Positions 8,508-62,180 are shown, counted from the stretch's first letter. The stretch is 64,000 bases of DNA from Patescibacteria group bacterium (GCA_018830045.1 JAHJTF010000020.1:4667-68666), one strand, 5' to 3'. A program made the numbers and translations. Notes: a model not told the origin generated them from the sequence alone.

Positions 8508-8520
8508 CATATTTTATTGA

Positions 8521-12490: not shown

Positions 12491-12579
12491 AAAAATTTTC
12501 AAATTTCTTTTTCCGTTTTGGGCGAAGGGCAGAGGGGAATTAAAGGGGTGAATGCCCGAGCCCAAAACACCTTTGTCGT

Positions 12580-12834: not shown

Positions 12835-12873
12835 ATTTTTTAAATTAATTAATTTAATTAAATTCGACCTTTA

Positions 12874-41758: not shown

Positions 41759-41788
41759 CTAGATACATGAAATAATTAAACTTAACTT

Positions 41789-44653: not shown

Positions 44654-45262
44654 ATGGAGATTCATCCTTATTATTATTCGTTGGAAAAACGTCTTTTTGA
44701 TGTAGTTCTAGCTATTTTTGTATTAATAATTTTATTCCCTATTCTATTAATGATTACCCTTTTAATCATGATCGGGATGGGATGGCCAGTGTTTTACCTG
44801 CAAAAAAGAGTAGGGAAAGATAAAAAAATTTTTGAGATGATTAAATTTCGCACCATGTATGTTGGTGCGCAAAAAAATCAATGGCGGTATCGCCAACACA
44901 ATCAGGCCCCAGAGCCAATGTATAAAAATTGGGACGACCCACGTTTTGTGAGCATAGGTAGATGGTTAGCAAAAACTGGCTTGGATGAACTTCCTCAACT
45001 CATTAACATTTTAAAAGGAGAGATGAGTTTTATAGGGCCAAGACCCCTACCAATACAAGAAGTTGGAAAACTAGATAAAACCTGGAATTTCAGGTATCTA
45101 GTCAGACAAGGAGTGTTTTCAGAATGGAGTACGTCTTTAAAAAAATACCTAACTCTCGAAGATTGGAAAAAACTAGAAGAAAAAACCCTCAGAAGAGGTG
45201 GGTTGGGGTATGAGGTTAAAACAATTGTCGCTACCTTTAAAACTTTATTACTAAAAATATAA
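44654..45262 (+). CDS. Polyprenyl-phosphate sugar phosphotransferase (bacterial sugar transferase, WbaP/EpsL C-terminal domain type)
   Basis: MIKFRTMY…DELPQLINILKGEMSFIGPRP, the signature of the bacterial sugar transferase family. Confidence 0.7.
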   Translation: MEIHPYYYSLEKRLFDVVLAIFVLIILFPILLMITLLIMIGMGWPVFYLQKRVGKDKKIFEMIKFRTMYVGAQKNQWRYRQHNQAPEPMYKNWDDPRFVSIGRWLAKTGLDELPQLINILKGEMSFIGPRPLPIQEVGKLDKTWNFRYLVRQGVFSEWSTSLKKYLTLEDWKKLEEKTLRRGGLGYEVKTIVATFKTLLLKI

Positions 45263-45265: not shown

Positions 45266-47998
45266 TCATTGGAACAAATGCTCCCAGTCCTCTCTTGGAA
45301 GAATTTGTTCCATTATTCGAGTAACTACTTCGGCTTTTTCCAAAAGATCATTTTCTAATAAGTTCTGAACTACTGATTGCAAATAAACAATCAATTCCAT
45401 CCTGGGTTCATAGGCAATAGCTGGTATTTGATTAGTAAGCAGGGAGTATTTAAAAGCCCGATCGTAATTCTGTTCACTTATTAGTTTTTTAATTAAAGTC
45501 ACAAAAACTTGAGTGCGCTCCTCTGTTTTCCAACCAATTTTTTCCCATGACCAATCAAAAGTAGCATCAATATAAACAGTTAAATTAACTGTAGATATCT
45601 TATTTTGATCAATTACCTCAAACCACTGCGGTTCTTCATTTAAAATCCAGGGAACTAGTTCTTGCGCCAGCTGATAACTCTGGATGGTCTTTGGCATCTC
45701 AGTTATCGCCAAATGGTTGCCTACCTCAACTAAGTACTGAGCTGTTTTCAGCTGGGGGTTGAAGTGAAGCGAAAACTCACTCTTATCAGACAAAAACTGC
45801 CAGACTTTGAAAATAGCTTCCAGATTCTCAAAAGCTTGACTATACTCATTTCGTTCTAAATTAATTTGAACTTGAGCTAAGGCCGTTTGGGAGAGAGTTT
45901 CCCAAATATCTCTACTCCGCCAATCGGTTAACTCAGCCAACCACTTTGCGTAGTGGGGAAATTTTAATAATTCGTCCTTTGATTTTACTGCGACCAAGGC
46001 ATTTAGGAAAGCTTGTGAATACACTTCGCGATATTGACCAAAGTATTCGCCGGGAATCTCCGCAAGAGAAACAAAAAAAACTATTTCCTGATCGGGAGAT
46101 AGATGATGCTGTAAAAATATGGGTGGATGCTTGTGTAAAATCCACTCATCTTCAAATCGAGCCCGGGCATACCACTTGGCTGTTTCTGCCGGTTGATTAG
46201 CCTGATAAAACAAATCGGCTAGCTTTAGCATTTGCTGTGTTAATTCAATTTTCTTGTTATAGCTAATCTTATAAAATCCTGATTTTTCTATCTGTCGCCA
46301 AACTGCCAAGGTTTTATTAATTTGCACAACAGCCTGCTCTAACTCTGCTTTCTCTAGGTAATAGCTAACTACATCTTGAGTCGCTCTATTCCCCGGTTGT
46401 AACTCTAACCAGTTTTCTCTTAAACGCTGCTGAATATTTTGGTCACTAATGGAACTAATATATGATTGGTAGATATCTGGATGATATTGATAGATTTGAA
46501 AAAATTTTTCTTTTTGCTGGTCTAATATAGTAGGTGACATTTCATATATTTTACGATGCCAATGAAAATAAGGAAAAATATTAAAAGCTTGGCCAACTTT
46601 ACCATTAGCTATGAATGACTCAATAATCAAATAAATTACTGCCAAACTGATTAGCAGCAGTAATGCTCCGTAATAAGTAGCTTTGAACAAAAGCTCTATA
46701 ATTTTATCATTTCTTTTTAAAATCAATGGAAAAAAATTTTCTGACCTAATAACAAGAGCAGCTAAAATCATAGTTAATGCCAATAAACCAGTAAAACTCC
46801 AATCAAAGTCAAAAATAACATTTAAATAAATGCCTATTAAACTAAGGGCGATTGCTTTTTGCCAAGTCAGCTTTTTTTTATCTGATTTGAAAGCTAAATG
46901 AATGACTTTAATTAATAAAACTCCCATTAATAAAAGAAATCCACTTCCACCGACCACTCCTAACTCAGCAAACATTTGTAAATAAGCATTATGTGCATAG
47001 CTAGTTGCTTCTAGTGGCATAATTTGATATTTTTTAGATGTTATTCCAAACGTTCCAGGGCCTGCTCCCAGCAACGGAAACTCTTTCGCAACCATGAAAG
47101 CCTGATGCCAGTACCAGAGCCGCACTTCTGTCCCCAAAGATTTACATAGTTGTTTCTTAAACAGTGGCGTCGGACAAAAAAAGTTATCTTTAATAATCGG
47201 GGTAATTGAAAAAAATATTTGGGTAGCGAAAGTCAACAAAAAAAGACTTACTAAAATTAGTAAAACTTTTTTAATTAAAGAATCTAACGGTTTTTTGTGT
47301 TGGAAAAAAATTAATATTAAAAAAATTAATTGCAGAAATCCAATTGAAACTGCTGTCCGACCAAAACTTAATAATAACGATAAACTGAAGATAACTGTCA
47401 AGGCCAATCGTCCATAATTATGCGAAGAATTAGAATTTTTATCTAAAGCCCACCACCAACTCAAAGGAATTACTAGTAATAAAAGTGCTGCTAGGTGATT
47501 ATGACCATAGGTAGCATGCAATAAATTCATTCCCGGTAACATCTCGGCCCAACTAGGAATTAAGAAAAAGCCAACACTAATAATTGTTGCCACTATGCCC
47601 AACAGTAGCAAGGTGCTAATTATCAGTTGAGGGAAAATTAATTTTTCATGCAAAACCACAAACCAAAACACCACAAATACCATCAGCCAACTGCTAGTGG
47701 CATCAAAAGTTAGGGGCCAGCTAATAGTTGAAATAGCTGCTAAGCCAAAAAACACCAAAAAACAAAACCAACTGACTGCAACTAGACGATAATGATGTAA
47801 TTTGGACCACTGTATTCTTCGACTGTAAAGCAATAAGAACAAACTCATCACACCCGATACCAAGTAACTCAAGTATGATTGACTCAATAATAATAAAAAT
47901 AATAAAGAACACAACCAACCAAGTATAAAAATTAAATATCGATTATCTTGTCTCACATATATATGATAACATTTATCAAGATGCTGATTTTCCAACAA
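45266..47998 (-). CDS. O-antigen ligase/polymerase-family (Wzy_C-like) polytopic membrane protein with a long C-terminal soluble helical domain
   Basis: 910 aa; the N-terminal ~450 aa are multi-TM with a Wzy_C-like loop. Called by family resemblance. Confidence 0.4.
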   Translation of the reverse strand: MLENQHLDKCYHIYVRQDNRYLIFILGWLCSLLFLLLLSQSYLSYLVSGVMSLFLLLYSRRIQWSKLHHYRLVAVSWFCFLVFFGLAAISTISWPLTFDATSSWLMVFVVFWFVVLHEKLIFPQLIISTLLLLGIVATIISVGFFLIPSWAEMLPGMNLLHATYGHNHLAALLLLVIPLSWWWALDKNSNSSHNYGRLALTVIFSLSLLLSFGRTAVSIGFLQLIFLILIFFQHKKPLDSLIKKVLLILVSLFLLTFATQIFFSITPIIKDNFFCPTPLFKKQLCKSLGTEVRLWYWHQAFMVAKEFPLLGAGPGTFGITSKKYQIMPLEATSYAHNAYLQMFAELGVVGGSGFLLLMGVLLIKVIHLAFKSDKKKLTWQKAIALSLIGIYLNVIFDFDWSFTGLLALTMILAALVIRSENFFPLILKRNDKIIELLFKATYYGALLLLISLAVIYLIIESFIANGKVGQAFNIFPYFHWHRKIYEMSPTILDQQKEKFFQIYQYHPDIYQSYISSISDQNIQQRLRENWLELQPGNRATQDVVSYYLEKAELEQAVVQINKTLAVWRQIEKSGFYKISYNKKIELTQQMLKLADLFYQANQPAETAKWYARARFEDEWILHKHPPIFLQHHLSPDQEIVFFVSLAEIPGEYFGQYREVYSQAFLNALVAVKSKDELLKFPHYAKWLAELTDWRSRDIWETLSQTALAQVQINLERNEYSQAFENLEAIFKVWQFLSDKSEFSLHFNPQLKTAQYLVEVGNHLAITEMPKTIQSYQLAQELVPWILNEEPQWFEVIDQNKISTVNLTVYIDATFDWSWEKIGWKTEERTQVFVTLIKKLISEQNYDRAFKYSLLTNQIPAIAYEPRMELIVYLQSVVQNLLENDLLEKAEVVTRIMEQILPREDWEHLFQ

Positions 47999-48212
47999 TT
48001 TAATAAATTTAAAGATAAAATTCAGGATACGTTTCTACAAATTTTATCAGTGTTTAGTTTAGCCGTGACTTATTTGTTGGGAGTGGGATTGACTCGCTTA
48101 ATATCAGTATTTGTTGATAAAAAATTTTTGCCCCCTGCTTCCACGAGCTCTCAGTGGCAGACAACAAAGTACTCAGATAAAGTTAATAATAGTTTATACT
48201 AAAACAATTTCT

Positions 48213-49970
48213 ATGATGAAAGTTCTGGGTATTTCTTGTTTTTATCATGACTCAGCCGCTTGTTTAACGTTGGATGGAAACATTATTGCTGCCGCTGCTG
48301 AAGAAAGGTTCAGTAGAAAAAAGCATGATAATGGTTTTCCAAAGTTAGCGATAGAATACTGTTTACAAACAGCTGGATTGGCAATTAATGAACTAGACGC
48401 CATTGCTTTTTATGAAAAGCCCATCTGGAAATTTGAAAGAATTTTGCACCAACACCTGGAACACTTTCCTAAAAGCTATCGGGCTTTTTTTGATACCACT
48501 GGCTCTTGGATCAACCAAAAATTAAACATTAAAAAAATTCTTCAAGAAACACTAAATTACTCTGGAGAAATTATTTTTTTACCCCATCATCTATCTCATG
48601 CGGCTAGTGCCTATTATTTATCGCCTTTTGATAAATCAGTCTTAGTCACTATTGACGGAGTAGGTGAATGGGCCACCACTACTATTGGTACAGCTAGTAA
48701 AGAGCAGCTCAAAATTGATCAAGAGATTCGTTTTCCTCACTCGCTAGGATTACTTTACAGCACCCTAACAGCTTACCTTGGATTTAAAGTCAATAACGAC
48801 GAATACAAAGTCATGGGATTAGCAGCTTATGGAAACCCAGATGAATACCAACCTGCTTTTGACAAATTAATCACTGTACATAAAGACGGTAGCTATGCTC
48901 TCGATATGTCTTACTTTGATTATGCTTGGGCTCAACGCATGCCGGCAAAAAAAATGGTGGCTTTGTTTGGTCACCCCATCAGAAAACCTGAAAGCAGAAT
49001 CTATCAGTACCATCAAAACATCGCAGCCACACTTCAAAACAAATTAGAAAAAGTGATTTTTAATTTACTCCAGGCAGCTCATAACAAATACCGCACTGAT
49101 AATCTCTGTCTATCGGGAGGTGTAGCTCTTAACTCTGTTATGAATGGTCGAATCCTGTCTCAAACATCATTTAAAAAAATCTTTATTCCTCCAGACCCGG
49201 GAGATGCCGGCGGAGCTATGGGGTCTGCTTTATATGTGACTTTAAACCCAGAGGTAATTCGAGGCTATGCAAACCGACATACAAAACACCTAAAAATCAA
49301 ACATAAAAAAATAGCTAAAAACTTCACTCCTTATTTAGGACCGGGTTATGCGTGGCATCAAATTGAATCAACTTTACAAAAAAATAAAAACCGTCTCAAA
49401 TACAAATATTTCTCTGATCAAGACAAATTATTAGATTTAATCTCTGACTTAATTATTAAGAAACATGTTATTGGTTGGTTCCAGGGTAGAATGGAGTGGG
49501 GTCCTAGAGCACTGGGAAATCGTAGTATCTTGGCTACTGCTACTGATCCTAAGATGAAAGATATTTTAAATGCTAAGGTTAAACATCGAGAAATGTTCCG
49601 TCCATTTGCTCCAGTGATATTAGAAGAATACGTTCCAAATTTTTTCAAGGCAGACCAGCCTTTGCCATCAATAAGTAAATATATGTTGATGGTTTATCCA
49701 TTTACAGAAAAAGGTAAAAAGGATATCTCGTCTGTAGTACATGTTGATAATACGGGCAGGTTGCAAAGCGTGAGTAGAAAAGATAACCCTCTTTATTATT
49801 CTCTAATTGAACGTTATTACCAAAAAACCGGCGTTCCAGTAATCATCAACACTTCTTTTAATATCCGCGGCGAACCAATTGTTTGCAGCCCTCAAGATGC
49901 GATCAATTGCTTTTTAGGAACTGACATTGATTATCTAGTAATCGACCAGTTTTTTGTCAGTAAAAAGTAA
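48213..49970 (+). CDS. Carbamoyltransferase (NodU/CmcH family)
   Basis: Start at MMKVLGISCFYHDSAACL…AAEERFSRKKHD…, the N-terminal signature of the NodU/CmcH family. The ORF extends to 48111. Confidence 0.65.
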   Translation: MMKVLGISCFYHDSAACLTLDGNIIAAAAEERFSRKKHDNGFPKLAIEYCLQTAGLAINELDAIAFYEKPIWKFERILHQHLEHFPKSYRAFFDTTGSWINQKLNIKKILQETLNYSGEIIFLPHHLSHAASAYYLSPFDKSVLVTIDGVGEWATTTIGTASKEQLKIDQEIRFPHSLGLLYSTLTAYLGFKVNNDEYKVMGLAAYGNPDEYQPAFDKLITVHKDGSYALDMSYFDYAWAQRMPAKKMVALFGHPIRKPESRIYQYHQNIAATLQNKLEKVIFNLLQAAHNKYRTDNLCLSGGVALNSVMNGRILSQTSFKKIFIPPDPGDAGGAMGSALYVTLNPEVIRGYANRHTKHLKIKHKKIAKNFTPYLGPGYAWHQIESTLQKNKNRLKYKYFSDQDKLLDLISDLIIKKHVIGWFQGRMEWGPRALGNRSILATATDPKMKDILNAKVKHREMFRPFAPVILEEYVPNFFKADQPLPSISKYMLMVYPFTEKGKKDISSVVHVDNTGRLQSVSRKDNPLYYSLIERYYQKTGVPVIINTSFNIRGEPIVCSPQDAINCFLGTDIDYLVIDQFFVSKK

Positions 49971-50131
49971 ATTAGAAAGTAAATATGCTAAAAGAACTTT
50001 TGGAGTACTTATGGAAAAATAAGGCTTGGTGGATCGCTCCACCAATTATCATTTTCACTATTTTTGGGGCTTTAATCATTTTTTCTAGTACCTCGCCAGT
50101 AAGTTCGTTTGTGTATATGATGTTTTAGTTA

Positions 50132-51115
50132 ATGAAACTAATTAAAAAAATTTTATTACCCGCTCTTATTTGTTTTTGTTCAATTATTTTAACGTACCGG
50201 GCGGCGTTTGCGATTGCAGAAAATTTCTTCTTTGACAAATTATTTTACAAAAAATCTGCAGTGTATGGTTATCAATCACATGATTCAAATCTGTTAAAGT
50301 ATCCAAATAACCAATTAATAGAAAAACGTATTACAGATTTACGACTTTTAACTAAAGCAGACTTAAATAAAGATCCACATGTGCTGGGAGTATCATCGGA
50401 AGATGATTATCGGATAGCAATTATCGGAGACTCATTTGTTTACGGCACTGGAGTGAAACAGGCTGAAAGGTTTCCTGAATTACTAGAAAAAAAACTCAAT
50501 AGCTATCGGAAAACTCAAGTTTTTGTTCTAGCTCAACCTGGCGATGGAATGCTGGAAAATTACGCGAAGTTTCTACTCGCCAAAGAAAATATTGATCCAG
50601 ATTTATTTATTATTGGTCTACTTCACAATGATTTATTAATTGATAATTCCAACAAATACCCTCGGCAACAAACCATCTATGAAAATTTAAAACAAGTTTG
50701 TCTTCAGCCAGAATTTAAATACTCATGGCCTAATTATCAGGCTTCTATCCAAGAGCTAATCGTCGACGGGTTTTATCCTTCATCTAAATCTGAGTACGCC
50801 AATATTTGCTATTTTGATAAAATTATAGTCGACATGACAAAGAATCCCGTACTTTTCTTTAGCTTCCACTCTAATCCCAGTAGCTATTTACCTGCTACTA
50901 ACGATGAGACTGAACAAAAATCAGACGCCATTGTGAAGCAATACAGCCAAATCATAAAAAATCACCAAGGAAAAATTGCTTACTTTGATGACCGCCTTCA
51001 ATATCAGCCAGTTTCTCACCTAGAAAATCATCCTTCAGTTAAAACCCACCAAGGTTACAGTGATTTACTAATGAAAGAAATTATTGAAAATCCACAATAT
51101 CATTTTTTACCATGA
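50132..51115 (+). CDS. Membrane-anchored SGNH/GDSL hydrolase-family protein, paralog 1
   Basis: N-terminal TM, shared FFDKLFYKKS box and a GDS block (IAIIGDSFVYGTGVKQA). Confidence 0.5.
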   Translation: MKLIKKILLPALICFCSIILTYRAAFAIAENFFFDKLFYKKSAVYGYQSHDSNLLKYPNNQLIEKRITDLRLLTKADLNKDPHVLGVSSEDDYRIAIIGDSFVYGTGVKQAERFPELLEKKLNSYRKTQVFVLAQPGDGMLENYAKFLLAKENIDPDLFIIGLLHNDLLIDNSNKYPRQQTIYENLKQVCLQPEFKYSWPNYQASIQELIVDGFYPSSKSEYANICYFDKIIVDMTKNPVLFFSFHSNPSSYLPATNDETEQKSDAIVKQYSQIIKNHQGKIAYFDDRLQYQPVSHLENHPSVKTHQGYSDLLMKEIIENPQYHFLP

Positions 51116-52107
51116 AAAAATTTCTGAAGTTTTTTTTGATTCTCACTACATTTTTGTTAAGCACCACAGCAACATACAAAATTGCTCACTTATTAAGCGA
51201 AAGGTGCTTTTTTGACAAACTGTATTACAAAAAATCACCAGAATATGGCTATTTTCTTCATAACACTAATCCTCTACTTAGTAAAAACAGTAAAATAATT
51301 GAGTCTAGAATTGCTGATCTTAAATTACTGACAGCAATAAACGAAAATAGTCACAATAATAGGATAAAAGGCATAACTAATAACGAGTCTTTTCAAATAG
51401 CAATCATCGGTGACTCATTTGTTTACGGCACTGGAGTGAAACAGGCTGATCGCTATGCTAATCGGCTAGAAAAATTACTTAATCAAATTAAACCAACAAA
51501 AATATATGTTCTTGCTCTTCCAGGAGATAACATTTTGGAACATTATACAAAATTTAAACTTGCCCAAGAAAATATCAAGCCTGATTTATATATTATCGGA
51601 ATTGCTAATAATGATTTATTAATTAATGATTTTATTTATCCTAATCAAGAATTTCTTTACCAAAAATCAAGAGAGGAATGCTTTCTGCCTGAATTTAAAT
51701 ATAATTGGCCAGATTATGCTATTACTATAGATCAGTTAATTTTAACTGCCTATTATCCAAGTTTTGATGATCAATATGCCAATATTTGCTATCTAAAAAA
51801 AATAATAAAAGAAATAGCAACAACAAACACCCTCTTTTTTAATTTTTATAAAATAGAAAATACTAATTCAACTCAAGACCTCAGTGAGGCTGAACAGAAA
51901 GATATTCAAATCATGAAAAAATACACCGAGATAATCCAACTGGCAGGAGGTCAAATTTTTCACCTCCATAACTCTCGGGTTTCAGGTGAGTATCAACCAG
52001 TCTCATTTTTGGAAGGACACCCATCAAAAGAAACGCATGAGTGGTTTGCAAAAGCCTTGTTTAATAGAATAATTATAAATAATAATTTAGGCTTTACCCA
52101 TGACTAA
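51112..52107 (+). CDS. Membrane-anchored SGNH/GDSL hydrolase-family protein, paralog 2
   Basis: Same architecture (FFDKLYYKKS; IAIIGDSFVYGTGVKQA). Its start overlaps the stop of paralog 1. Confidence 0.5.
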   Translation: MKKFLKFFLILTTFLLSTTATYKIAHLLSERCFFDKLYYKKSPEYGYFLHNTNPLLSKNSKIIESRIADLKLLTAINENSHNNRIKGITNNESFQIAIIGDSFVYGTGVKQADRYANRLEKLLNQIKPTKIYVLALPGDNILEHYTKFKLAQENIKPDLYIIGIANNDLLINDFIYPNQEFLYQKSREECFLPEFKYNWPDYAITIDQLILTAYYPSFDDQYANICYLKKIIKEIATTNTLFFNFYKIENTNSTQDLSEAEQKDIQIMKKYTEIIQLAGGQIFHLHNSRVSGEYQPVSFLEGHPSKETHEWFAKALFNRIIINNNLGFTHD

Positions 52108-53107
52108 ACTTTGGAAAATTGTCCTATTAATAAGTTTGGGGCTATTATCTGGATTACTGACCATAAAAATCAGTTATTTTTTAGCAGAAACTTATTTCTT
52201 TGACAAATTTTATTATTATAAAAGTATCGAGCATGGTTACTGGATTCCAGGACAAAAACTAACTTTAGAAAATTTTGGTGAAAGAGCTCTTGATCTGATT
52301 CAATTAGACAAAAACTTTCAAGCTACTAAAAACGGAGAGCGAATTTTAGAAATTAATGAGGATGAAGCATACACCATAGCTCTTATTGGAGATTCCTACG
52401 CTTGGGGGCAAGGAGTTAGATTTGAAGATACTATTTCTCAATTATTGGAAAAAAAGCTAAATCAATATAAAAAAACCACTGTGCTGTCATTGGGGTATTC
52501 TGGAGACTCAATTCTTGATTATTTTATAAGATATGATCAGCTGAGACAAACCTATCCGATAGATCTTTATATTTTTATGTTAGTTGAAAATGATTTATTA
52601 TTAGTTAAAGATTATGAAAAAAGGTATGAGCAGACATCGATATTCCATGATTGTCAAAGCCTCTTCCCTGAACAAAAACCTATCTACGACTTATCTAATA
52701 ATGATTATGAGCTAAGAATATTTAACGGTTCTGACATATTAGAAAAAGAATGGGCGGAAAGATTTGAGCAATCATGGTATTCAGAATTAAATTTATGCAT
52801 TTTAGACCAAAGTTTACAAGCCTTACCAACAGACAATGCCATTTTTTTTATCAGCTTATACCGTGATGAGGAAAATTCACAACCACAATGGAAAACTTAT
52901 AGAGAATACTTAAATAAAAACCAAAAAACAGTATTGCGCTCCGCCGATGCCAAAACGCTAGATGACTATAAACGTTTCTGGAAAAAACCCTCGAAATATT
53001 TTTCAGTTTCTCCAAAAGACTCCGGGCACCCTTCAAAAACTGCCCACCGCATGTTTGCTGATTTATTAGGTAGAGAAATTTTAACTAATCTTAAGTGGGG
53101 ATTTTGA
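52100..53107 (+). CDS. Membrane-anchored SGNH/GDSL hydrolase-family protein, paralog 3 (more divergent)
   Basis: FFDKFYYYKS; IALIGDSYAWGQGVRFE. Confidence 0.45.
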   Translation: MTKLWKIVLLISLGLLSGLLTIKISYFLAETYFFDKFYYYKSIEHGYWIPGQKLTLENFGERALDLIQLDKNFQATKNGERILEINEDEAYTIALIGDSYAWGQGVRFEDTISQLLEKKLNQYKKTTVLSLGYSGDSILDYFIRYDQLRQTYPIDLYIFMLVENDLLLVKDYEKRYEQTSIFHDCQSLFPEQKPIYDLSNNDYELRIFNGSDILEKEWAERFEQSWYSELNLCILDQSLQALPTDNAIFFISLYRDEENSQPQWKTYREYLNKNQKTVLRSADAKTLDDYKRFWKKPSKYFSVSPKDSGHPSKTAHRMFADLLGREILTNLKWGF

Positions 53108-54539
53108 CTTTTAATACTAAAAAGGAAGAATTATTGAGTAGCGTTTCTGCATTATCAAAGTAAAAATTTTTATATTCAGCTGAATCTTCTTTTTCTATAA
53201 TCATTAATCCGTTAGCTGGTAAAGTCTCAGCAGAGAGAAAGTCAACTGATTGTTCCTCAATATAGGTCAAGATACCAGTATAAAACCTTAGGGTAAAAAA
53301 CTGGTGTAGTGGTTCTGTTTTTCTAGCATAGTAATTGATTTCCAGTTCATCACCACATTTTTGATCAGTGCACAAATCAACCAGCTCATTAAAATTTCTA
53401 ATCCTCTCAGTTGGGAAAAAACTACCATATCTAAGTCTATTTGCTGTTTCAAGCAGATAATAAGTGTGTGTAATAGTTATCATAACTACGCCAATCACAA
53501 AAAGAATTAAAAACCAGTTATCTTTTTTTAAAAAGCGATTATGGATTAAAACTATTATTTTCTTTAAACCGACTATTAAATAGGCAACAACAAAAGGTAG
53601 AATAATTAATAAGTAGCGACGAGCAAACCATTCTAAAATAGCAGCAAAAGATTGATAAACCAAAGCAAAAAATATGATGATTGAAATAATAAATCCAACT
53701 GAAGACTTATCTTTCTTATTAGTTAAAGTAACTAAAAAACCAACTAAAGAAAATAATAAAACAGGAATCGAAAATAATTCTACTAATGCTCGCCACCAAT
53801 TAAGAATTGAATAATTAAAATTTAAGTAGGCATGAGAGAAATTTTCTAAGGAGCTATTTCTCATATTGGTTAAAAACAACAGAAAGTCATTTGATGAATA
53901 GTAATTTATTGCCAACCACAAAAAAGGCACGATAATTAAAACTAAAATCAATACTCGCTTTATTCTAGAAGATTGAGCTGACTTATATACATACCACATG
54001 ATTAGGGGAGTTAAATACCAAGCCTCATACCTAATTCCTTGAGCTACCATAAAACTACCCACACCCCAAATGTAACGAGGTGAATCTTTTAAAATTAAAA
54101 TCAATGCTAATAAGAGAAAAAATACAAATACCTGCTCTGTAAAAGGAAAAGTACTAATTAAAAACCGATAAGGGAAAAACAGATAAATTAAGCCTGCTAA
54201 AACAGCTTCCCGAGAGTTTAAATCAAGTAATTCGCGGCAGTAGAAATAAACCAATACTACTGTGCCAGAACTAAAAAGAAGATTAACCACTCTGGGAGTT
54301 AGAGTAAAATCATCTAGAACGTGCAAAGCACCCCCCAGTAACAACGGATAAAGCGGCAGCCACAGGCCAGTGTATAGCGTATTGAGCGAGCCACTGTCTT
54401 TAAATGCTTTGGCAGTCAAAGAATGTATATAAGGATCTGTTTCGGTATACATTGGAGTCTTAAGCTGGGGTATAGCGACAATGGCTGAAAAAAGAAAAAG
54501 TAATAACGGGGTAACTAAATGGATTCGTTTTAAAATCAT
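53091..54539 (-). CDS. Polytopic membrane glycosyltransferase, GT39/GT83 (ArnT/PMT)-like
   Basis: 482 aa with more than 10 TM segments and an N-terminal loop containing an acidic motif (TETDPY). Called by family resemblance. Confidence 0.35.
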   Translation of the reverse strand: MILKRIHLVTPLLLFLFSAIVAIPQLKTPMYTETDPYIHSLTAKAFKDSGSLNTLYTGLWLPLYPLLLGGALHVLDDFTLTPRVVNLLFSSGTVVLVYFYCRELLDLNSREAVLAGLIYLFFPYRFLISTFPFTEQVFVFFLLLALILILKDSPRYIWGVGSFMVAQGIRYEAWYLTPLIMWYVYKSAQSSRIKRVLILVLIIVPFLWLAINYYSSNDFLLFLTNMRNSSLENFSHAYLNFNYSILNWWRALVELFSIPVLLFSLVGFLVTLTNKKDKSSVGFIISIIIFFALVYQSFAAILEWFARRYLLIILPFVVAYLIVGLKKIIVLIHNRFLKKDNWFLILFVIGVVMITITHTYYLLETANRLRYGSFFPTERIRNFNELVDLCTDQKCGDELEINYYARKTEPLHQFFTLRFYTGILTYIEEQSVDFLSAETLPANGLMIIEKEDSAEYKNFYFDNAETLLNNSSFLVLKVKIPT

Positions 54540-54544
54540 AATAA

Positions 54545-55024
54545 TTATTTTAGGTCATCTAAAAAACTTTTTAATTTCTTGACAATGCTTTGAGACTGCC
54601 CCCAAGTTATTTTCCCTGATTGATAAGACTGAACCTGATAAAATAGTTCTTTTTTATCTAAACACAGATATATTTTATTTTTTTTGGCTAATTCTTGAGC
54701 AAAATATAGTTGATGATCGCTAACATGTTCACCATATTTTTTAAGCCTAGGAATAACAATTGGTTTTTTTCCTGCCAAGAAGATGCTTTGATAAATCGTA
54801 GCTGGCCCGGCATGAGAAATCACTATTCTTGCTTTTCTTAATAAAGAAACGAACTCATTAAAATTATAGTTGGATTTTTGTACAGCGCCTGCGACTAAAA
54901 TAGTAGCAGTGCCAGATTGAATAATTACTTTTTCTTTAATTTTTTTTTGTTTAATAAGAGCATTTATTAAAAGTAACAATCTATCAAACGGCAAATGATG
55001 AGTCCCAACTGTCACAAAAATCAT
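54545..55024 (-). CDS. Alg13-like glycosyltransferase subunit (GT28 C-terminal domain, PssE-like)
   Basis: MIFVTVGTHHLPFDRL… N-terminus typical of Alg13/PssE. It is paired with the Alg14-like gene upstream. Confidence 0.6.
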   Translation of the reverse strand: MIFVTVGTHHLPFDRLLLLINALIKQKKIKEKVIIQSGTATILVAGAVQKSNYNFNEFVSLLRKARIVISHAGPATIYQSIFLAGKKPIVIPRLKKYGEHVSDHQLYFAQELAKKNKIYLCLDKKELFYQVQSYQSGKITWGQSQSIVKKLKSFLDDLK

Positions 55025-55470
55025 AGCGTACTCCCCCAGTATTTCGCTTTAGGGAAAAATCTTTGTTGTTGAACATTTTGAATCAAGAACAAATCGGCCA
55101 GAAGATAAACTAATCGACCGCTAAGCGATGGTTTATCAATAAAGTCTAAAGGCTCAATAAAAACCAAAGTCATACCGAAAAGTTTCCCAACTATAAAAAA
55201 AGGAGGAGCAATTCCTGCTCCCGCACTGATTAACACTTGCGGTTTTTCTTTCAGCAGGATCTTAAACGCCAACCATAAGTTATAAAAAAAATTAAGAATA
55301 TTCCGACTTTCAGGATAGTAGGCTAAGTATAGATTTTCACCTTCAAGAAGACTAATTGTGTCAGATTTATCAAAGCTAACCCAAAAATGGACTCTGTTTT
55401 CCCAACAAGACTTCAGTTGTAAAAGTTGAAATAAGTGACCCCCCGCTGACGTTACTAGCCCAATCTTCAT
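55021..55470 (-). CDS. Alg14-like glycosyltransferase membrane subunit (PssD-like)
   Basis: MKIGLVTSAGGHLFQLLQL… and the pairing with the Alg13-like gene downstream. Confidence 0.6.
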   Translation of the reverse strand: MKIGLVTSAGGHLFQLLQLKSCWENRVHFWVSFDKSDTISLLEGENLYLAYYPESRNILNFFYNLWLAFKILLKEKPQVLISAGAGIAPPFFIVGKLFGMTLVFIEPLDFIDKPSLSGRLVYLLADLFLIQNVQQQRFFPKAKYWGSTL

Positions 55471-56636
55471 GATTTAGATTGTAGTTTAAAAATTTCCCTA
55501 AGCCCATACCAAGGTTTGCCTGTCAGACGAAACCAAAGATATTTTTTAAACTCCCTAGGAATAGATCTCTCTACATCGCAACCGCTGTTGCAACCCAAAC
55601 ATGAACTTCCAAGCATCTTTTGCTTAAATTTTATGTTTTTATGATCAAATAAAATTTCACTCACGGTTTGATCAGAGCGACAATTTCCTATTTTACGTTC
55701 TGAAAAACAATAATAAACATCACCAAAACTATCCAAAGCAAACTGATCATATTGGAAAGGACAAGCGGTTGTTCTGGGTCGACCATCGCGATACATATGG
55801 AGTAAATCCTTCCAATAATAAGCTCGGAAATCTTTCCATGATTTAGGCTGACTCATCTCTTCCATAAATGATTCCAACTGTTTTTGTTCTTTTTTTCTAA
55901 AACTAACTTCCTTCTTTGTATCCAGATTATTAATATAAGTATCATGGAAGCCCACAATTTGAAATGTGCCATTTATTTGATTATCTTCATACCACTTTTT
56001 CATTTTGTTAATCTCAGGTAAATTCTGCCTCAGCACCAACGAGCCACTTCCTACCCAAAACCCATATTGTTTTGATAGTTTTTTTAATTGAAACAGAGTG
56101 GCGGTGGTTTTTTCAAAGGCATTGGGAATACGTCTAATTTTTTCATGCATCTTACCCACACCATCCAGAGAGATACTCACGCTTAGCTCAACATCATGCT
56201 TATTACAGATTTTGGCAATTTCTATCACTCGTTTGACAATTAATTCAGTCATAAAACCATGAGAAACCATTGTTAGTTTGCGCAACTTTGGCATAGAGCG
56301 AATTATCAACTCAGCCATTTGAGGTAATTGTGGATGGAGAGATACTTCTCCGCCCGTCAAGCCACAGCGTTCAATGTTGACAAACACTGGATCTTTAAAA
56401 ATCTTTTTCCAGTCCTCATATTTGAGTTCATCCTTGGGCTTCATTTTCCAAATATTACACATCACGCATCGGGAATTACAGTGATAAGTCAGTCCTATTA
56501 AAACCGCTTTTGGTGACAGTGGCCTAAAATTATGAATTACATTATAGCGATACATTCCTTGAATAATTCTACCGATTTTATAAAGCTTGCGACGAACTTT
56601 TAGCTGCATAGATGAAAACTTCTGATTTGAAATCAT
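55467..56636 (-). CDS. Radical SAM enzyme with C-terminal SPASM-like Cys cluster
   Basis: CNSRCVMC (CxxxCxxC) near the N-terminus, plus C-terminal cysteines (…ACPF…YYCFS…GNCRS…CLGCNSGC). Confidence 0.65.
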   Translation of the reverse strand: MISNQKFSSMQLKVRRKLYKIGRIIQGMYRYNVIHNFRPLSPKAVLIGLTYHCNSRCVMCNIWKMKPKDELKYEDWKKIFKDPVFVNIERCGLTGGEVSLHPQLPQMAELIIRSMPKLRKLTMVSHGFMTELIVKRVIEIAKICNKHDVELSVSISLDGVGKMHEKIRRIPNAFEKTTATLFQLKKLSKQYGFWVGSGSLVLRQNLPEINKMKKWYEDNQINGTFQIVGFHDTYINNLDTKKEVSFRKKEQKQLESFMEEMSQPKSWKDFRAYYWKDLLHMYRDGRPRTTACPFQYDQFALDSFGDVYYCFSERKIGNCRSDQTVSEILFDHKNIKFKQKMLGSSCLGCNSGCDVERSIPREFKKYLWFRLTGKPWYGLREIFKLQSKS

Positions 56637-56642
56637 ATTATC

Positions 56643-57743
56643 CTAATCTAGCAATACGCGTAACGTTTTATCAATTAAAGATTGGTTATGATACTTTAAG
56701 ACAGTTCGTCTTGCTTGCTGACCAACAGCTTGTCTTTTTTTATGATCTTGTAATAACAAGATAATTCTTTTTCCCATCGCCATGGCAGTCTGCTCGATAT
56801 AACTGTTTTTTCCATGTTCCAAGTACTCTTCCGCTCCCGGATAAGAGAGGGTTATCGGGACGACTTGTTGCGTCATGGCCTCCAGCAGTACTAAGGGATG
56901 CCCCTCAAAATCAGAGGTAAGGGTAAAAAGTTTTGCCCTGGATAACTCAGTAATTATTTTTTTAGTGGGAGGCTTGATGATTATATTATCTTTTAGACTG
57001 TGCTTCTTAATATAGTGACGAAGTTTCTTTTCTTCAGGACCTTCTCCAATTAAACAGAGCTTTATTTTAGGCAAAGTTAATTTGATTTGTTTGACTATTT
57101 CGAGAAGTTTAATCAACCTTTTTTGAGGGGCAAAACGGCCACAATAAATAAGATCATACTTTTTAGACTGTCGATATAACCGAGTGTCTTTTATCCAATT
57201 TTGGATAACCACTACCTTATTAGGATCTGTCTTGTAGTTTTTAACTAAGTCTTGTTTAGCATATTCAGTCTGAACGATGATTGTATCAACTAGCCGATAG
57301 CACCAACTAATAATTATGTTGGAGTGAGTTCTGATAGAATAAGGCAATTGATTTTCAAATGAGAGCACGTTGTCTTGGCTAACAACAACTTTAATTTTTT
57401 TCCAAAAAAATAAGTACTTCATCAGCACACAGTAGGCGGTCGCATGATGCAAAAATGGCACTAAAATTTTGGGGTTATATTCCAGGATCAAATAAATTAA
57501 AAAAATAATATAGCGAATTTTACGTTCTTTACTTGGAAAAACATTTTCAATATGCAACTGCCTAAAACCAGCTGGAAGATCTGATTCAAAACTAAAAGCC
57601 TCTGTCCGACGAACTACAATATGAGGAATAATATCATAGTAATTTTGATCGGCTTCTAAATGGTAAACTAAATCAATTATTTTGCGCTGAATACCACCCA
57701 ACCCTAAATGAAAAAAAAGGAAAAAAACATGTCTATCCTGCAT
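56643..57743 (-). CDS. Glycosyltransferase family 4 (GT-B) protein
   Basis: CGRFAPQKRL…LIGEGPE…FEGHPLVLLEAM (the E-x7-E region). Confidence 0.7.
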   Translation of the reverse strand: MQDRHVFFLFFHLGLGGIQRKIIDLVYHLEADQNYYDIIPHIVVRRTEAFSFESDLPAGFRQLHIENVFPSKERKIRYIIFLIYLILEYNPKILVPFLHHATAYCVLMKYLFFWKKIKVVVSQDNVLSFENQLPYSIRTHSNIIISWCYRLVDTIIVQTEYAKQDLVKNYKTDPNKVVVIQNWIKDTRLYRQSKKYDLIYCGRFAPQKRLIKLLEIVKQIKLTLPKIKLCLIGEGPEEKKLRHYIKKHSLKDNIIIKPPTKKIITELSRAKLFTLTSDFEGHPLVLLEAMTQQVVPITLSYPGAEEYLEHGKNSYIEQTAMAMGKRIILLLQDHKKRQAVGQQARRTVLKYHNQSLIDKTLRVLLD

Positions 57744-57756
57744 ACTTAAATTTTTT

Positions 57757-58602
57757 TTACTCTGTGTAATTGATCGTCGATGACATCACCGAACCATCCC
57801 TGACATAGGTTTGACCAGAATCAGCCCAAAACGCTTCGCCAATCATAAAAGTCTGATAATGATTATAGTAACAAAGCTTGTCAACACAGAGTACATCGGG
57901 TAGTTCAAAAGTCGCTGTAATGTCTTTTTTAATTGGATCCCAGCGCAACAGCACATCTCCCCGATCATTGACCACTACTTTTTCAGCAGGAGTAATTTTA
58001 ACTTCTTTTGTTTTGAGGATAATTTCTCCCTTGCTGTTAGTGACTACAAAATTTTTGATTGCTTCCGCATGCCAAGGATCATAATCGCGATAGTGGACTT
58101 TGATCTCTGCATTAGCTCGCCGATAATCGGCGAAACGCTGTTCAGGATTTTTGTAAACATTAACCACTATACCAGTGAATGAGGTGTCATTAAATTTAAG
58201 GTTAAGTTCTTCACCTACTAAAAGAGGATTGCCGTCATACACGTAAGTTCTAGTAGTGGTATTATAAACTGCATCTAGTTTGACTACCATCTCGACGTAT
58301 AACCGTCTCCCTCCGTCCCAAACATTTTTTTCAATCTCTTGAATTTCAACTACTTTCTTGCCTACTGAATTGTAGCCCACATCGCCTACCCGAAGTTTAT
58401 TTACCTCCCAATATTCTGGAGGAAAAGAGTTTACGTTCCAATCCTGCCGTTGAAAAGTTAAGTCTATATAGATAAAGACTCTCTGCCTACGAAAGTAAAA
58501 AAGCAAAAATCCTACAATTAAAATACCGAATAAAATTAGAACCAAATCAATCAGAGTAATTTTTTTTAGGAGAGATTTTTTTAAATTTTTAAGATTGAGC
58601 AT
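57757..58602 (-). CDS. Hypothetical membrane-anchored protein
   Basis: 281 aa with an N-terminal TM. No recognisable motifs. Confidence 0.3.
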   Translation of the reverse strand: MLNLKNLKKSLLKKITLIDLVLILFGILIVGFLLFYFRRQRVFIYIDLTFQRQDWNVNSFPPEYWEVNKLRVGDVGYNSVGKKVVEIQEIEKNVWDGGRRLYVEMVVKLDAVYNTTTRTYVYDGNPLLVGEELNLKFNDTSFTGIVVNVYKNPEQRFADYRRANAEIKVHYRDYDPWHAEAIKNFVVTNSKGEIILKTKEVKITPAEKVVVNDRGDVLLRWDPIKKDITATFELPDVLCVDKLCYYNHYQTFMIGEAFWADSGQTYVRDGSVMSSTINYTE

Positions 58603-60049
58603 AAGCTATTCCTAAGAGCAACCACACAATACCACTAATTGGAATTGTTAACCACCAAGGATAAAACTGACTAACTAATAAATAACCCAAACACCCTAAA
58701 ATCAGTCCTTTTATAAGAATATTTTTTCCACTCACCAGCCAGCTGTATCCTTGGACTATTATTCTATATATAAATCTAATAAACAATAACAAACCCCCAA
58801 TTCCCAAAGCCGCTCCTACTTGAGCAAACAAATTATGAGCAGGAGTTGAATCATATAAATAAAATTCTGGTTTCCATTGATCTAAAATCTTATATTGATA
58901 CACATTAAGACCTAGACCCAAAGGCCTGGTAGCCATAAAGTGAGCAGCCATTTGTAAATGTCGCAAGCGATAAATTGCCCCGCCATCCTCTCTAAAAACT
59001 TGAGTCAGACTCATCAATCTATCTAGAATCATGGGTGCCAAGAAAATAATTAATAAACCTAAAATTATCCAGCCATATTTTTTTAACCAAACTGGCAACT
59101 GTACTTTGTTTTTCTTAATAATCAGTTGGTAGCTCACCAGAATCAACATCGCCCCGATCACCCAAGCTGCTCTACTGGCCGTTAAAATTAAGGCTAAACT
59201 ACCCACAACAAAACAGCTCATCATAAAACCCCGATGAAACCAAACTTTTTTGAAACTAAAAATAAACCACGATGGTAAGAACATGATCAAAATTGAAGAA
59301 GTCAAATTTGCATCCCAAAATATTCCTCCTGGTCTATATAAACTAGGAGATTCGTCGGCAAAACGACCAGCATATCCAGTATATTTTTCTTCAATTGCCA
59401 AACCAATGGGGCCACCATTGATTTTCTGTGCTACCACTAAACTAGCTAAAAACAAACCATAAATAAAAATTATTTCTAGTGTTTTTTTAGCCAAAGATTT
59501 GTCTTTAACTAAAGCCATAGCCAGAAATCCCATGGCAAACAACTTGGTTAATTGTAGTAACCAAAACCAAGATACTTCTGGTAATGGTGAGAGCAAAGAT
59601 GAAACTACCCCTAATGTTATAATTAGTAGCAGTGGCAAATAGGGAAAGGCATGAGGAATCTTAAAAGGCTTGCTGCCAGTCTTGAATCTACTTCTTACTA
59701 ATAAATAAAGTAATAAGATTAGTAACGCATCAGCAAAGGCTACAAAAAAAATAAGCTCGGGTTGCTTTAAGCCAAGTGCCGAATAATTGTCTGGAGCGAT
59801 GTAGGGTTTAATAAAGTATTTAGACTGTCTTAACAGATAAATACCAATAAAACCTAGCCACACTGAGTTTATTAATTCTTTATTTAAAAAATATATCACA
59901 ACAACTAATAACACCATCGCCAACAAGTAGGGTCGCAAAGTACCGATGTTCATTGATAATAAAATAAAAACAACATATACCCAAGACTCAGGTTCTAAAA
60001 TTCTTAAAAAAGATAAAAAAGAATTAGTAATTTTATGAAACATATGCAA
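58589..60049 (-). CDS. O-antigen ligase/polymerase-family membrane protein
   Basis: Polytopic membrane protein with a Wzy_C-like LTASRAAWVIGAMLIL loop. Confidence 0.5.
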   Translation of the reverse strand: MHMFHKITNSFLSFLRILEPESWVYVVFILLSMNIGTLRPYLLAMVLLVVVIYFLNKELINSVWLGFIGIYLLRQSKYFIKPYIAPDNYSALGLKQPELIFFVAFADALLILLLYLLVRSRFKTGSKPFKIPHAFPYLPLLLIITLGVVSSLLSPLPEVSWFWLLQLTKLFAMGFLAMALVKDKSLAKKTLEIIFIYGLFLASLVVAQKINGGPIGLAIEEKYTGYAGRFADESPSLYRPGGIFWDANLTSSILIMFLPSWFIFSFKKVWFHRGFMMSCFVVGSLALILTASRAAWVIGAMLILVSYQLIIKKNKVQLPVWLKKYGWIILGLLIIFLAPMILDRLMSLTQVFREDGGAIYRLRHLQMAAHFMATRPLGLGLNVYQYKILDQWKPEFYLYDSTPAHNLFAQVGAALGIGGLLLFIRFIYRIIVQGYSWLVSGKNILIKGLILGCLGYLLVSQFYPWWLTIPISGIVWLLLGIAYAQS

Positions 60050-60787: not shown

Positions 60788-60791
60788 GTAA

Positions 60792-62174: not shown

Positions 62175-62180
62175 TTTATA

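Follow-up and report, generated by a model that had tools for sequence, protein, structure and literature searches.

A six-gene operon of a Patescibacteria group bacterium combines three tandem membrane-anchored SGNH paralogs with a carbamoyltransferase and a DUF5989 microprotein bearing a candidate acyl-shuttle tail

The window analysed here is a stretch of 64,000 nucleotides (nt) from a Patescibacteria group bacterium (GCA_018830045.1, JAHJTF010000020.1:4667-68666), which contains, inside a glycan biosynthesis locus, three consecutive genes for paralogs of the SGNH/GDSL hydrolase type, designated S1, S2 and S3. An original prediction made from the sequence had described three genes of about 330 amino acids (aa) with overlapping stop and start codons, and this description holds, the products being 327, 331 and 335 aa in length, with overlaps of 4 nt between S1 and S2 and of 8 nt between S2 and S3. 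Three further genes precede them on the same strand, including that of a DUF5989 microprotein:

47948-48202, plus strand: small upstream open reading frame (ORF), 84 aa from a TTG start or 79 aa from an ATG at 47963, conserved in relatives
48213-49970, plus strand: O-carbamoyltransferase of the NodU/CmcH/TobZ type, 585 aa (Pfam)
49985-50128, plus strand: DUF5989 microprotein, 47 aa (Pfam PF19451)
50132-51115, plus strand: S1, SGNH paralog 1, 327 aa (ORF list)
51112-52107, plus strand: S2, SGNH paralog 2, 331 aa (ORF list)
52100-53107, plus strand: S3, SGNH paralog 3, 335 aa, the widespread 'type B' (ORF list)

The small ORF is separated from the carbamoyltransferase gene by 10 nt, the latter from the DUF5989 gene by 14 nt, and the DUF5989 gene from S1 by 3 nt. 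On the basis of these gaps and the overlaps of 4 and 8 nt, the small ORF, the carbamoyltransferase, DUF5989, S1, S2 and S3 belong to one operon of six genes (47948-53107). Between the stop of the carbamoyltransferase (49970) and the start of S1 (50132) lie 161 nt, and since the DUF5989 gene fills this gap, the carbamoyltransferase, which the original prediction had merely placed next to the array, is the conserved head of the same operon. Promoter and terminator scans of the locus performed no better than with shuffled sequence (28 vs 27.2 and 5 vs 4.0, respectively). A candidate terminator at 50026-50045, comprising a perfect 8-base-pair hairpin and a T-run and scoring on both strands, was rejected as lying inside the DUF5989 ORF, where the codons of a conserved Trp-Trp (TGGTGG) and Pro-Pro (CCACCA), being reverse complementary, give rise to the hairpin.

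S1, S2 and S3 align end to end, with 63 columns invariant among the three, and share 45 % (S1-S2), 28 % (S1-S3) and 29-31 % (S2-S3) pairwise identity. Each begins with two to three lysines followed by a hydrophobic stretch (best 19-residue Kyte-Doolittle means of 2.12, 1.42 and 2.16 for S1, S2 and S3, respectively), and AlphaFold2 models built with a 59-sequence family alignment (S2: predicted local distance difference test score, pLDDT, 93.3, predicted template modelling score, pTM, 0.91; S3: pLDDT 95.0, pTM 0.92) comprise one long N-terminal helix (residues 2-32), a structured extension of ~60 residues and a five-stranded alpha/beta core, in line with the N-terminal membrane helix claimed for each protein. 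The core has the three-layer alpha/beta/alpha fold with five-stranded parallel sheet that characterises the SGNH hydrolases. The combination of a lysine-rich N-terminus, a hydrophobic helix and two invariant cysteines, which would fit a disulfide, suggests that S1-S3 are type II signal-anchor proteins with the catalytic domain outside the cell. A cleavable signal peptide was also considered, with an A-F-A site found in S1 and none in S2 or S3; the catalytic domain would be outside either way.

Residues of the catalytic type are retained in all three copies. In S1 (membrane helix at residues ~3-25) these are Ser101, Gly137, Asn166 and His300 with Glu298, accompanied by Cys190/Cys226; in S2 they are Ser102, Gly138, Asn167 and His303 with Glu301, accompanied by Cys190/Cys226; and in S3 they are Ser99, Gly135, Asn164 and His310 with Asp307 (D-S-G-H), accompanied by Cys185/Cys233. 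The predicted GDS(F/Y) motif of block I is present as GDSF in S1 and S2 and as GDSY in S3, while the glycine of block II (in P-G-D or S-G-D) and the asparagine of block III (in [HNE]-N-D) have their aligned counterparts in the SGNH esterase 7c2c. Mapping the proposed Ser/Asp/His set by alignment thus places Ser, Gly, Asn and His in every copy, but the Asp-x-x-His spacing only in S3. This canonical acid spacing recurs in just two others of the 59-sequence set; most of the family has [E/D]-x-H in block V, as do S1 (E-N-H) and S2 (E-G-H), the histidine being invariant. Across the 59 members F34, K41, G46, Y47, R66, G100, S102, G106, G108, L119, D168, C190, C226 and H303 (S2 numbering) are invariant, and E30, F33, D35, Y39, S42, D101, N167 (the block III asparagine, at least 90 %) and P304 nearly so. 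Conservation equals that of the active site in the juxtamembrane segment E-x-[YF]-F-F-D-K-x-[FY]-Y-x-K-S-x3-G-Y. Within this segment, the shared FFDK(L/F)(F/Y)YKKS box that had been noted is matched by S1 (FFDKLFYKKS, residues 33-42) and S2 (FFDKLYYKKS), but S3 (FFDKFYYYKS) departs from it at one position. Taken together, these features make S1-S3 putatively active, catalytically competent SGNH enzymes. Neither of the two outcomes that would have refuted the original prediction, loss of the triad from every copy or homology to another fold, was observed.

All three Pfam GDSL scores are borderline, with 33.1, 34.7 and 32.1 bits for S1, S2 and S3 against PF13472 (cut-off 32.9) and 26.0 and 24.5 bits for S2 and S3 against PF00657 (cut-off 23.6), which argues that the trio represents a divergent SGNH subfamily, apparently centred on the candidate phyla radiation (CPR). 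NCBIfam holds no family for S1-S3, the only notable match being a weak one to the Leptospira LA_2486 GDSL family (29.5 bits vs a cut-off of 300), and a sequence search of the PDB with the trio gave only marginal SGNH matches (E 0.014). S2 is 100 % identical to an NCBI protein annotated as 'SGNH/GDSL hydrolase family protein'. By structure, the nearest neighbours include the GDSL-like lipase 1vjg (score 14.5), CgnD (14.2), the CE3 esterase 2vpt (13.0), PatB (11.8), Ape1 (11.3), DltD (10.2-10.3) and the C-terminal domain of OatA (10.0). The top 50 PDB entries in a Foldseek search with the S3 model are, by description, GDSL/SGNH-type esterases, lipases and acetylesterases, the top entry having been deposited as an alpha/beta hydrolase.

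A family profile retrieved 292 cluster representatives at E ≤ 1e-30 among 1.84 billion proteins, and as the best 150 are nearly all full-length matches (~270-420 aa), the likeness within the trio reflects paralogy and not chance. The loci and proteins of relatives are referred to by L- and P-numbers, respectively, and each locus was covered over 10-20 kilobases (kb); the profile used to search for them was built from nine type-A sequences, a 25-sequence alignment having been too diverse. All named sources of family members are Patescibacteria. Five loci (L008, L009, L010, L018 and L019) carry database labels such as 'uncultured Pseudomonadales', 'Gammaproteobacteria' and 'Candidatus Methanoperedens', which look like binning or taxonomy errors, since gene content and synteny match those of Shapirobacteria-like CPR loci.

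The expected copy-number variation among relatives is found. One SGNH copy is present in L014, L016 (where the contig ends after the copy), L018, L028 and L033, two in L012, L017 and L036, and three in the window, L001, L009, L011 and L030, while L034 has an uninterrupted run of five SGNH-type genes (4856-10076), made up of three family members plus two distant GDSL genes, after a carbamoyltransferase and DUF5989. In a bootstrapped neighbour-joining tree S1 groups with L030 copy 2 (bootstrap 100), S2 with L001 copy 2 (96) and S3 with L030 copy 3 (99), and S3, L030 copy 3, L001 copy 3 and the single copy of L014 fall in one clade (90). Each of the three L009 copies has its own orthologue among the three of L011, while the pairs in L002 and L012 each consist of recent duplicates of one another. 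This mixture of positional orthology and recent duplicate pairs indicates that the arrays were built by repeated duplication and turnover, the retained copies being kept as distinct types. The statement that the third gene is the more diverged is correct in terms of pairwise identity within the trio, but does not extend to the family, in which the S3-like type is the commonest and the 59-sequence consensus reads like S3. Three single-copy loci beside a carbamoyltransferase (L014, L016 and L018) likewise carry the S3-like type, and S1 and S2 are proposed to be lineage-specific additions.

Several relatives encode a second, different kind of membrane-anchored GDSL protein, 332-384 aa long, whose gene converges on the SGNH array and lies on the minus strand in L001 (11921-13075), L009 (13296-14432), L017 (12431-13570) and L013 (5288-6286). 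In L001 it occupies the position taken in the window by a DUF2079-like gene.

The 47-aa protein encoded between the carbamoyltransferase and S1 (MLKELLEYLWKNKAWWIAPPIIIFTIFGALIIFSSTSPVSSFVYMMF; 49985-50128) matches DUF5989 (PF19451) with an E-value of 1.9e-13 and 50.7 bits (cut-off 27). It consists of a lysine-rich N-terminus, one membrane helix and an uncharged C-terminal tail of 13 residues, a charge distribution which predicts that the N-terminus is inside and the C-terminus outside the cell. The tail ends in FVYMMF, an instance of the motif FxYxxF, and F-[VI]-Y-x-x-F is found at the extreme C-terminus of every DUF5989 ORF read, including those of the CPR loci, of L023, of Sinorhizobium meliloti pSymB and of a Planctomyces plasmid, and hence also in Rhizobiaceae, Planctomycetota and Pseudomonadota. 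Only seven columns are invariant in a cross-phylum DUF5989 alignment, and three of these are F42, Y44 and F47. A protein homologue search with the 47-aa query returned eight close CPR relatives, owing to a word-index limit, and was extended by tblastn on plasmids and by a metagenome scan with two patterns (tail and N-terminal), in which 341 homologous stretches were confirmed and 80 kept. The FxYxxF tail occurs in 80/80 of the homologues kept, a count that is partly circular because the tail is itself one of the search patterns; the independent cases are the twelve tails (FIYALF, FIYTIF, FVYTIF and FVYALF) that lie outside the tail pattern and were found with the N-terminal one, and these still conform to FxYxxF.

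FxYxxF at an extracytoplasmic C-terminus has been described as an 'acyl shuttle' motif, the tyrosine of which carries an acyl group to the serine of an SGNH transferase (PMC12148441). In the Dlt system the MBOAT protein DltB loads D-alanine on the tyrosine of the microprotein DltX, from which the serine of the membrane-anchored SGNH protein DltD takes the group and passes it to lipoteichoic acid, while in PatAB the tail is fused to the MBOAT protein, as in PatA of N. gonorrhoeae (FIYANF) (PMC12148441). A scan of the loci collected at that stage for proteins that have a membrane segment and a C-terminal [FYW]xYxx[FYWLM] matched the DUF5989 ORFs and, apart from these, a single protein of L020 (483 aa, ending in FLYFRF). 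According to Pfam the latter is an MBOAT protein, encoded about 1.3 kb downstream of a 572-aa GDSL protein (region 9146-13599 for the two) in a Desulfococcaceae genome, and it serves as a built-in positive control.

The carbamoyltransferase is well supported by Pfam (Carbam_trans_N, E 8.3e-87; Carbam_trans_C, E 3.4e-70), while its match to the NCBIfam NodU model (150.7 bits) is far below the equivalog cut-off of 1000. It is presumably cytoplasmic, no membrane segment having been noted. The small ORF that precedes it encodes one membrane helix and a tail ending ...W-Q-...-L-Y, and has homologous ORFs of 63-90 aa directly upstream of the carbamoyltransferase in L009, L011, L013, L016, L017, L018, L028, L030 and L033, being annotated as a gene in L028, L030, L033 and L034. 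It has no Pfam match. The 84-aa ORF could be aligned to the last helix of the SxtJ profile, though non-significantly (E 0.058, probability 0.9 %), and no Pfam SxtJ match was obtained in the window.

The association of these genes is conserved. All twelve CPR loci with a DUF5989 ORF (the window, L009, L011, L013, L014, L016, L017, L018, L028, L030, L033 and L034) carry a carbamoyltransferase and between one and three SGNH genes (five in L034) directly adjacent, and a DUF5989 orthologue is encoded in every CPR locus read that has a carbamoyltransferase. In the P0036 locus, a thirteenth, the genes follow one another in the same way, but no ORF is called in the 180-nt gap where DUF5989 would lie. 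The L034 DUF5989 ORF is missing from the source annotation. Beyond the CPR, the Pseudomonadota metagenome-assembled genome L023 encodes a carbamoyltransferase, SxtJ (PF19588, E 1.4e-11), DUF5989 and a convergent SGNH protein, whose anchor, extension and blocks I-III all align with the profile of the CPR family (hhalign probability 98.5 %, E 2.6e-15). The pSymB replicon of S. meliloti 1021 (L026, 482210-486410) encodes a 442-aa GDSL protein, a 143-aa ORF, DUF5989 (E 1.1e-24) and a carbamoyltransferase, the GDSL protein having no significant match to the CPR family profile. A co-directional cluster on Ensifer canadensis pT173d (L037, J3R84_RS37570-37585) is annotated as 'GDSL-type esterase/lipase', hypothetical, 'DUF5989 family protein', 'carbamoyltransferase' and a family 4 glycosyltransferase (GT4). 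The two rhizobial clusters adjoin a two-component system, and their 143-aa ORF has no Pfam SxtJ match, yet aligns with SxtJ proteins. SxtJ itself is encoded in L023 and L027, and the labels 'SxtJ family membrane protein' and 'DUF5989 family protein' stand side by side in NCBI annotation.

The metagenomic loci show a similar pattern. Ten of the 22 in which DUF5989 is flanked by 3 kb or more on either side have an SGNH gene matching the CPR profile within 3.5 kb. With carbamoyltransferase and SxtJ excluded, Lipase_GDSL_2 is the commonest neighbouring Pfam family (13/71 ORFs in 21 distinct loci with such flanks), followed by GT4 (6). In nearly all of the neighbouring SGNH proteins with a locatable GDS block, a strongly hydrophobic segment lies at the N-terminus, as a rule 60-110 residues ahead of the block. 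Carbamoyltransferase was found in 62/80 and SxtJ in 56/80 of the metagenomic DUF5989 loci, many of the contigs being short.

Several known systems resemble the one in the window. As in Dlt, a single-pass microprotein of about 50 aa (DltX; here DUF5989) with FxYxxF at a predicted extracytoplasmic C-terminus accompanies an SGNH-fold partner (DltD; here S1-S3) held by an N-terminal membrane helix, a cytoplasmic enzyme would activate the group through an adenylate (DltA; here the carbamoyltransferase), and the target would be a cell-envelope polymer. Unlike in Dlt, the window scans revealed neither an MBOAT protein nor a carrier protein, DUF5989 lies outside the DltX Pfam family, the group would be carbamoyl rather than D-alanyl, one to five SGNH genes instead of one accompany each shuttle, and the genes are carried by CPR and various Gram-negative bacteria instead of by Firmicutes. 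PatA/PatB/Ape1 and the MBOAT-SGNH pairs AlgI/AlgJ/AlgX and WssH/WssI share with the window a tail (FIYANF in PatA; FVYMMF or FIYTLF in DUF5989) that feeds, or here may feed, an extracytoplasmic SGNH transferase, and PatA/PatB/Ape1 further illustrate that an operon may hold SGNH proteins of opposite roles, PatB being a transferase and Ape1 an esterase. In the PatA type, however, the tail is fused to an MBOAT protein and the donor is acetyl-CoA, whereas the tail here belongs to a free microprotein with no MBOAT. AlgX and AlgJ have their acid two residues before the histidine. Most of the window's SGNH family has the same acid-His spacing, but the triad order is permuted in AlgX/AlgJ and is the canonical Ser...His here. 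In contrast to the AT3-SGNH O-acetyltransferases (OafA/OafB and OatA), S1-S3 have a single helix anchor, with no AT3 domain fused or adjacent. The esterases of known structure (1vjg, CE3 2vpt, 7e16 and TesA) differ in being soluble proteins of ~180-250 aa, with 10-19 % identity to the trio, that have no membrane helix, juxtamembrane FFDK segment or N-terminal extension of ~60 aa, and in their acid spacing ([E/D]-x-H here). The system in the window thus resembles the Dlt and PatAB acyl shuttles but falls outside them, there being no MBOAT and DUF5989 not belonging to the DltX family. Membership of S1-S3 in SGNH is ordinary; what would be new, conditional on biochemistry, is the module formed with the DUF5989 microprotein.

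The closest parallel in gene content is the cyanobacterial saxitoxin cluster, where sxtI is assigned to carbamoylation, sxtJ (405 nt) and sxtK (165 nt) are of unknown function and sxtL encodes a GDSL lipase proposed as a decarbamoylase, a proposal untested according to the same papers (PMC2679770, PMC2885083). The set and order of carbamoyltransferase, small membrane proteins and GDSL/SGNH protein are alike (PMC2679770, PMC2885083). On the other hand, that cluster makes a small alkaloid instead of a surface glycan, the window has only the 84-aa upstream ORF in place of a recognisable SxtJ, and SxtL (~426 aa vs 327-335 aa for the trio) is likened to S1-S3 by gene position and annotation, not by sequence. 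Position, size (165 nt) and the co-annotation of SxtJ and DUF5989 suggest that SxtK belongs to DUF5989.

Taken together, the best-supported reading of S1-S3 is that they form the extracytoplasmic catalytic arm of the carbamoyltransferase/microprotein module. More specifically, they may be the transferase arm of a Dlt/Pat-like relay that O-carbamoylates a surface glycan outside the cytoplasm, to which a probability of roughly 0.4 is given. In such a relay the carbamoyltransferase would activate carbamoyl phosphate as carbamoyl-AMP, and the carbamoyl (acyl) group would end on the invariant tyrosine of the outward-facing FxYxxF tail of DUF5989. An SGNH serine (S101, S102 or S99 in S1, S2 and S3) would then take up the group as a covalent intermediate, in analogy to the step from DltX to DltD or from the PatA tail to PatB, and hand it to a hydroxyl of the lipid-linked or polymerised glycan produced by the surrounding Wzy-type locus. 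The S3 type could be the commonest partner, with S1 and S2 adding acceptor specificities, or one of them might act as the esterase counterpart, in the way that Ape1 accompanies PatB. In chemical terms, a serine hydrolase can be carbamoylated by an aryl carbamate. Of this picture, the fold, the catalytic-type residues, the operon layout, the tail motif and the recurring neighbourhood were observed, while the topology, the nature of the acyl group, the tyrosine intermediate, the direction of the reaction (transfer or hydrolysis) and the acceptor are deduced.

A number of observations weigh against this relay. Carbamoyl-serine enzymes usually turn over slowly. The path of a group activated in the cytoplasm to a tyrosine on the outside is unexplained, because no MBOAT or AT3 conduit was found: neither family occurs among the scanned window ORFs or in the Pfam lists of L001 and L002, or among the neighbour families with at least two members in the metagenomic loci, the sole MBOAT seen being that of the unrelated L020. 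One could speculate that SxtJ, the 84-aa ORF or carbamoylation of the very short DUF5989 protein before its membrane insertion fills this role. DUF5989 has no match to the Pfam DltX family, as the 47-aa protein matched nothing in Pfam at E ≤ 1 apart from DUF5989 itself and, weakly, Wzz, and the structural neighbours of S1-S3 fail to separate transferases from esterases. No result obtained here does so, and the 'combinatorial acyl decoration' of the original prediction thus stays an interpretation. The literature searched contained no experiment on any DUF5989 or SxtK protein; the searches returned no paper that mentions DUF5989, none that links SxtK with DltX, and nothing relevant that joins carbamoyltransferase, SGNH and polysaccharide. 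Finally, some SGNH members have no adjacent carbamoyltransferase or DUF5989 (L001, with an otherwise syntenic triple array, L002/L007, L004, L008, L010, L012, L015, L019 and L035), and the carbamoyltransferase/SxtJ/DUF5989 trio of the Planctomyces plasmid (L027) has no adjacent SGNH gene.

These last cases would be expected if the SGNH genes were independent of the carbamoyltransferase and DUF5989, acting as generic glycan O-acyl esterases or transferases with another donor and adjoining the other two merely because they share a glycan locus. Members do occur in glycan loci with neither gene within 10 kb, namely in L001, which has the same downstream cassette and a GT2 gene upstream, in L002 and L012, where they lie by an AsnB-like gene, and in L010, L015 and L035. 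The partner genes could, however, sit elsewhere in those genomes, only 10-20 kb having been covered per locus, and the directly adjacent SGNH genes in 12/12 CPR DUF5989 loci, with gaps of usually a few nucleotides, and the recurrence of the association in unrelated phyla amid different surrounding genes weigh against this reading, which is considered unlikely. A somewhat better case, though still a weaker one than for the relay, can be made for extracytoplasmic esterases that remove O-carbamoyl or O-acetyl groups from the exported glycan and so tune the modification introduced by the cytoplasmic carbamoyltransferase. The set of catalytic-type residues is complete, the acyl group would need no conduit through the membrane, and there are parallels both in Ape1 beside PatA/PatB and in the GDSL gene sxtL, next to sxtI-J-K, with its proposed decarbamoylase product, although that proposal has itself not been tested (PMC2679770, PMC2885083). 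Esterase activity would nevertheless leave the invariant extracytoplasmic FxYxxF tail without a role, it is not obvious why up to five hydrolases should be kept in the operon that installs the group, and the PDB neighbours are biased towards esterases.

It is far less probable that S1-S3 are membrane-anchored lipases or phospholipases with which an episymbiotic, lipid-auxotrophic CPR cell harvests or remodels host lipids. CPR bacteria depend on host lipids, the Pfam family bears the name 'GDSL-like lipase/acylhydrolase', the annotation of one homologue reads lysophospholipase L1-like esterase and the structural neighbours include TesA/lysophospholipase L1, but more than 20 loci agree in their glycan context, the genes are tightly linked to carbamoyltransferase and DUF5989, and the same module is found in free-living Rhizobiaceae. 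A role on peptidoglycan rather than on the locus glycan, by addition or removal of O-acetyl groups, seems just as improbable: PatB, Ape1 and OatA are among the structural neighbours and a distant member, P0015 (L004), lies beside the dcw cell-division and wall cluster, but the window copies and most relatives are encoded inside Wzy/glycosyltransferase loci, away from wall-synthesis genes, and no partner of the PatA or OatA type was found in the window ORF scans. The P0015 gene (L004, 10001-10939) is a single copy next to ftsZ, ftsA, murG, ftsW and murD, outside any glycan locus.

If the carbamoyl relay is correct, the acyl-tyrosine shuttle mechanism known from Dlt and PatAB would gain a new chemistry, carbamoyl, and a new class of upstream enzyme that works without an MBOAT, and the company that carbamoyltransferases keep in many phyla, two very small membrane proteins and a GDSL protein, would be explained. 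SxtJ, SxtK and SxtL, recorded as being of unknown or merely guessed function ever since the first description of the saxitoxin clusters, would likewise gain a testable role. CPR surfaces mediate host attachment and the CPR are genetically inaccessible; the module would there constitute a variable surface-glycan decoration unit with one to five SGNH copies, while the homologous clusters on S. meliloti pSymB and in Ensifer offer cultivable, tractable models. A wider proposal, rather doubtful at this stage, is that DUF5989 and SxtK are DltX-like shuttles in which a carbamoyltransferase replaces the MBOAT, and that together with SGNH transferases they make up a widespread, undescribed extracytoplasmic O-carbamoylation pathway in CPR, Proteobacteria, Planctomycetes and Cyanobacteria, with tandem paralogs setting the decorated positions and with functions for SxtJ, SxtK and SxtL. 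Even if the SGNH proteins are esterases, the conserved four-part module and the overlooked microprotein gene stand.

The glycan biosynthesis setting that had been predicted for the array is borne out by the flanking genes, which, besides the carbamoyltransferase, comprise Bac_transf, two Wzy_C, GT28, GT4, radical SAM/SPASM, methyltransferase, ATP-grasp ligase and pyridoxal phosphate (PLP) decarboxylase genes:

44654-45262, plus strand: Bac_transf, initiating sugar-phosphate transferase (Pfam)
45266-47998, minus strand: large divergent Wzy_C protein, 910 aa (Pfam)
53091-54539, minus strand: convergent polytopic membrane protein, 482 aa, DUF2079-like (Pfam DUF2079, E 4.9e-4, below the cut-off)
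54545-63353: rest of the glycan cassette (Pfam), with Alg13-like, Alg14-like, radical SAM/SPASM, GT4, a DUF4330-like 281-aa protein, Wzy_C (486 aa), methyltransferase, ATP-grasp ligase and PLP decarboxylase
54545-56636, minus strand: split Alg13-like and Alg14-like GT28 genes, then the radical SAM/SPASM gene (Pfam)
58589-60049, minus strand: second Wzy_C protein, 486 aa (Pfam)
60035-63353: methyltransferase, ATP-grasp ligase and PLP-dependent decarboxylase, forming the cassette end (Pfam)

The order Bac_transf, Wzy_C, small ORF and carbamoyltransferase is repeated in L028, L030 and L033, and the downstream glycan cassette is syntenic in L001 and L030. Homologues of the DUF2079-like protein follow the SGNH array in L009 and L011 and occur nearby in L013, while none is present in L030. 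The Alg13/Alg14/radical SAM cassette is kept in L001 and L030, the radical SAM protein being 65 % identical in L001, where the methyltransferase/ATP-grasp/PLP decarboxylase set also stands at the cassette end; these last genes hint at an amino-acid-derived substituent on the glycan. AsnB-like amidotransferases (GATase_7 and Asn_synthase) are encoded directly beside the SGNH genes in L002 (8193-9998) and L012 (2185-4056), where there is no carbamoyltransferase, and an AsnB-like gene also lies nearby in L033 and the P0036 locus; AsnB-like proteins are another adenylate-forming enzyme at the same position.

The large Wzy_C gene is divergent from the small-ORF/carbamoyltransferase operon, an arrangement kept in L013, L028, L030, L033 and the P0036 locus. 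In the window the 84-aa ORF and the divergent Wzy_C ORF, both taken from TTG starts, overlap by ~50 nt, and since the 863-aa Wzy_C of L030 does not overlap the small ORF, the Wzy_C start in the window probably lies further in. PilN- and PilO-like genes (41180-42496) are located just upstream, and given this proximity one of the Wzy_C proteins could be an O-oligosaccharyltransferase for pilin or another surface protein instead of a polymerase. The G+C content across the glycan locus (46000-64000) is 0.31-0.36, as opposed to 0.38-0.44 in the first 46 kb of the window, which is typical of variable surface-polysaccharide regions and may reflect exchange between lineages. The remainder of the window contains housekeeping genes, including those for GroEL, LepA, TsaD, MurJ, a class A penicillin-binding protein and a P-type ATPase. 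Among the genes for N6-threonylcarbamoyladenosine (t6A) synthesis, a single plus-strand ORF (4709-5878) fuses the Sua5/YrdC and TsaE domains, while TsaD is encoded separately at 16216-17412.

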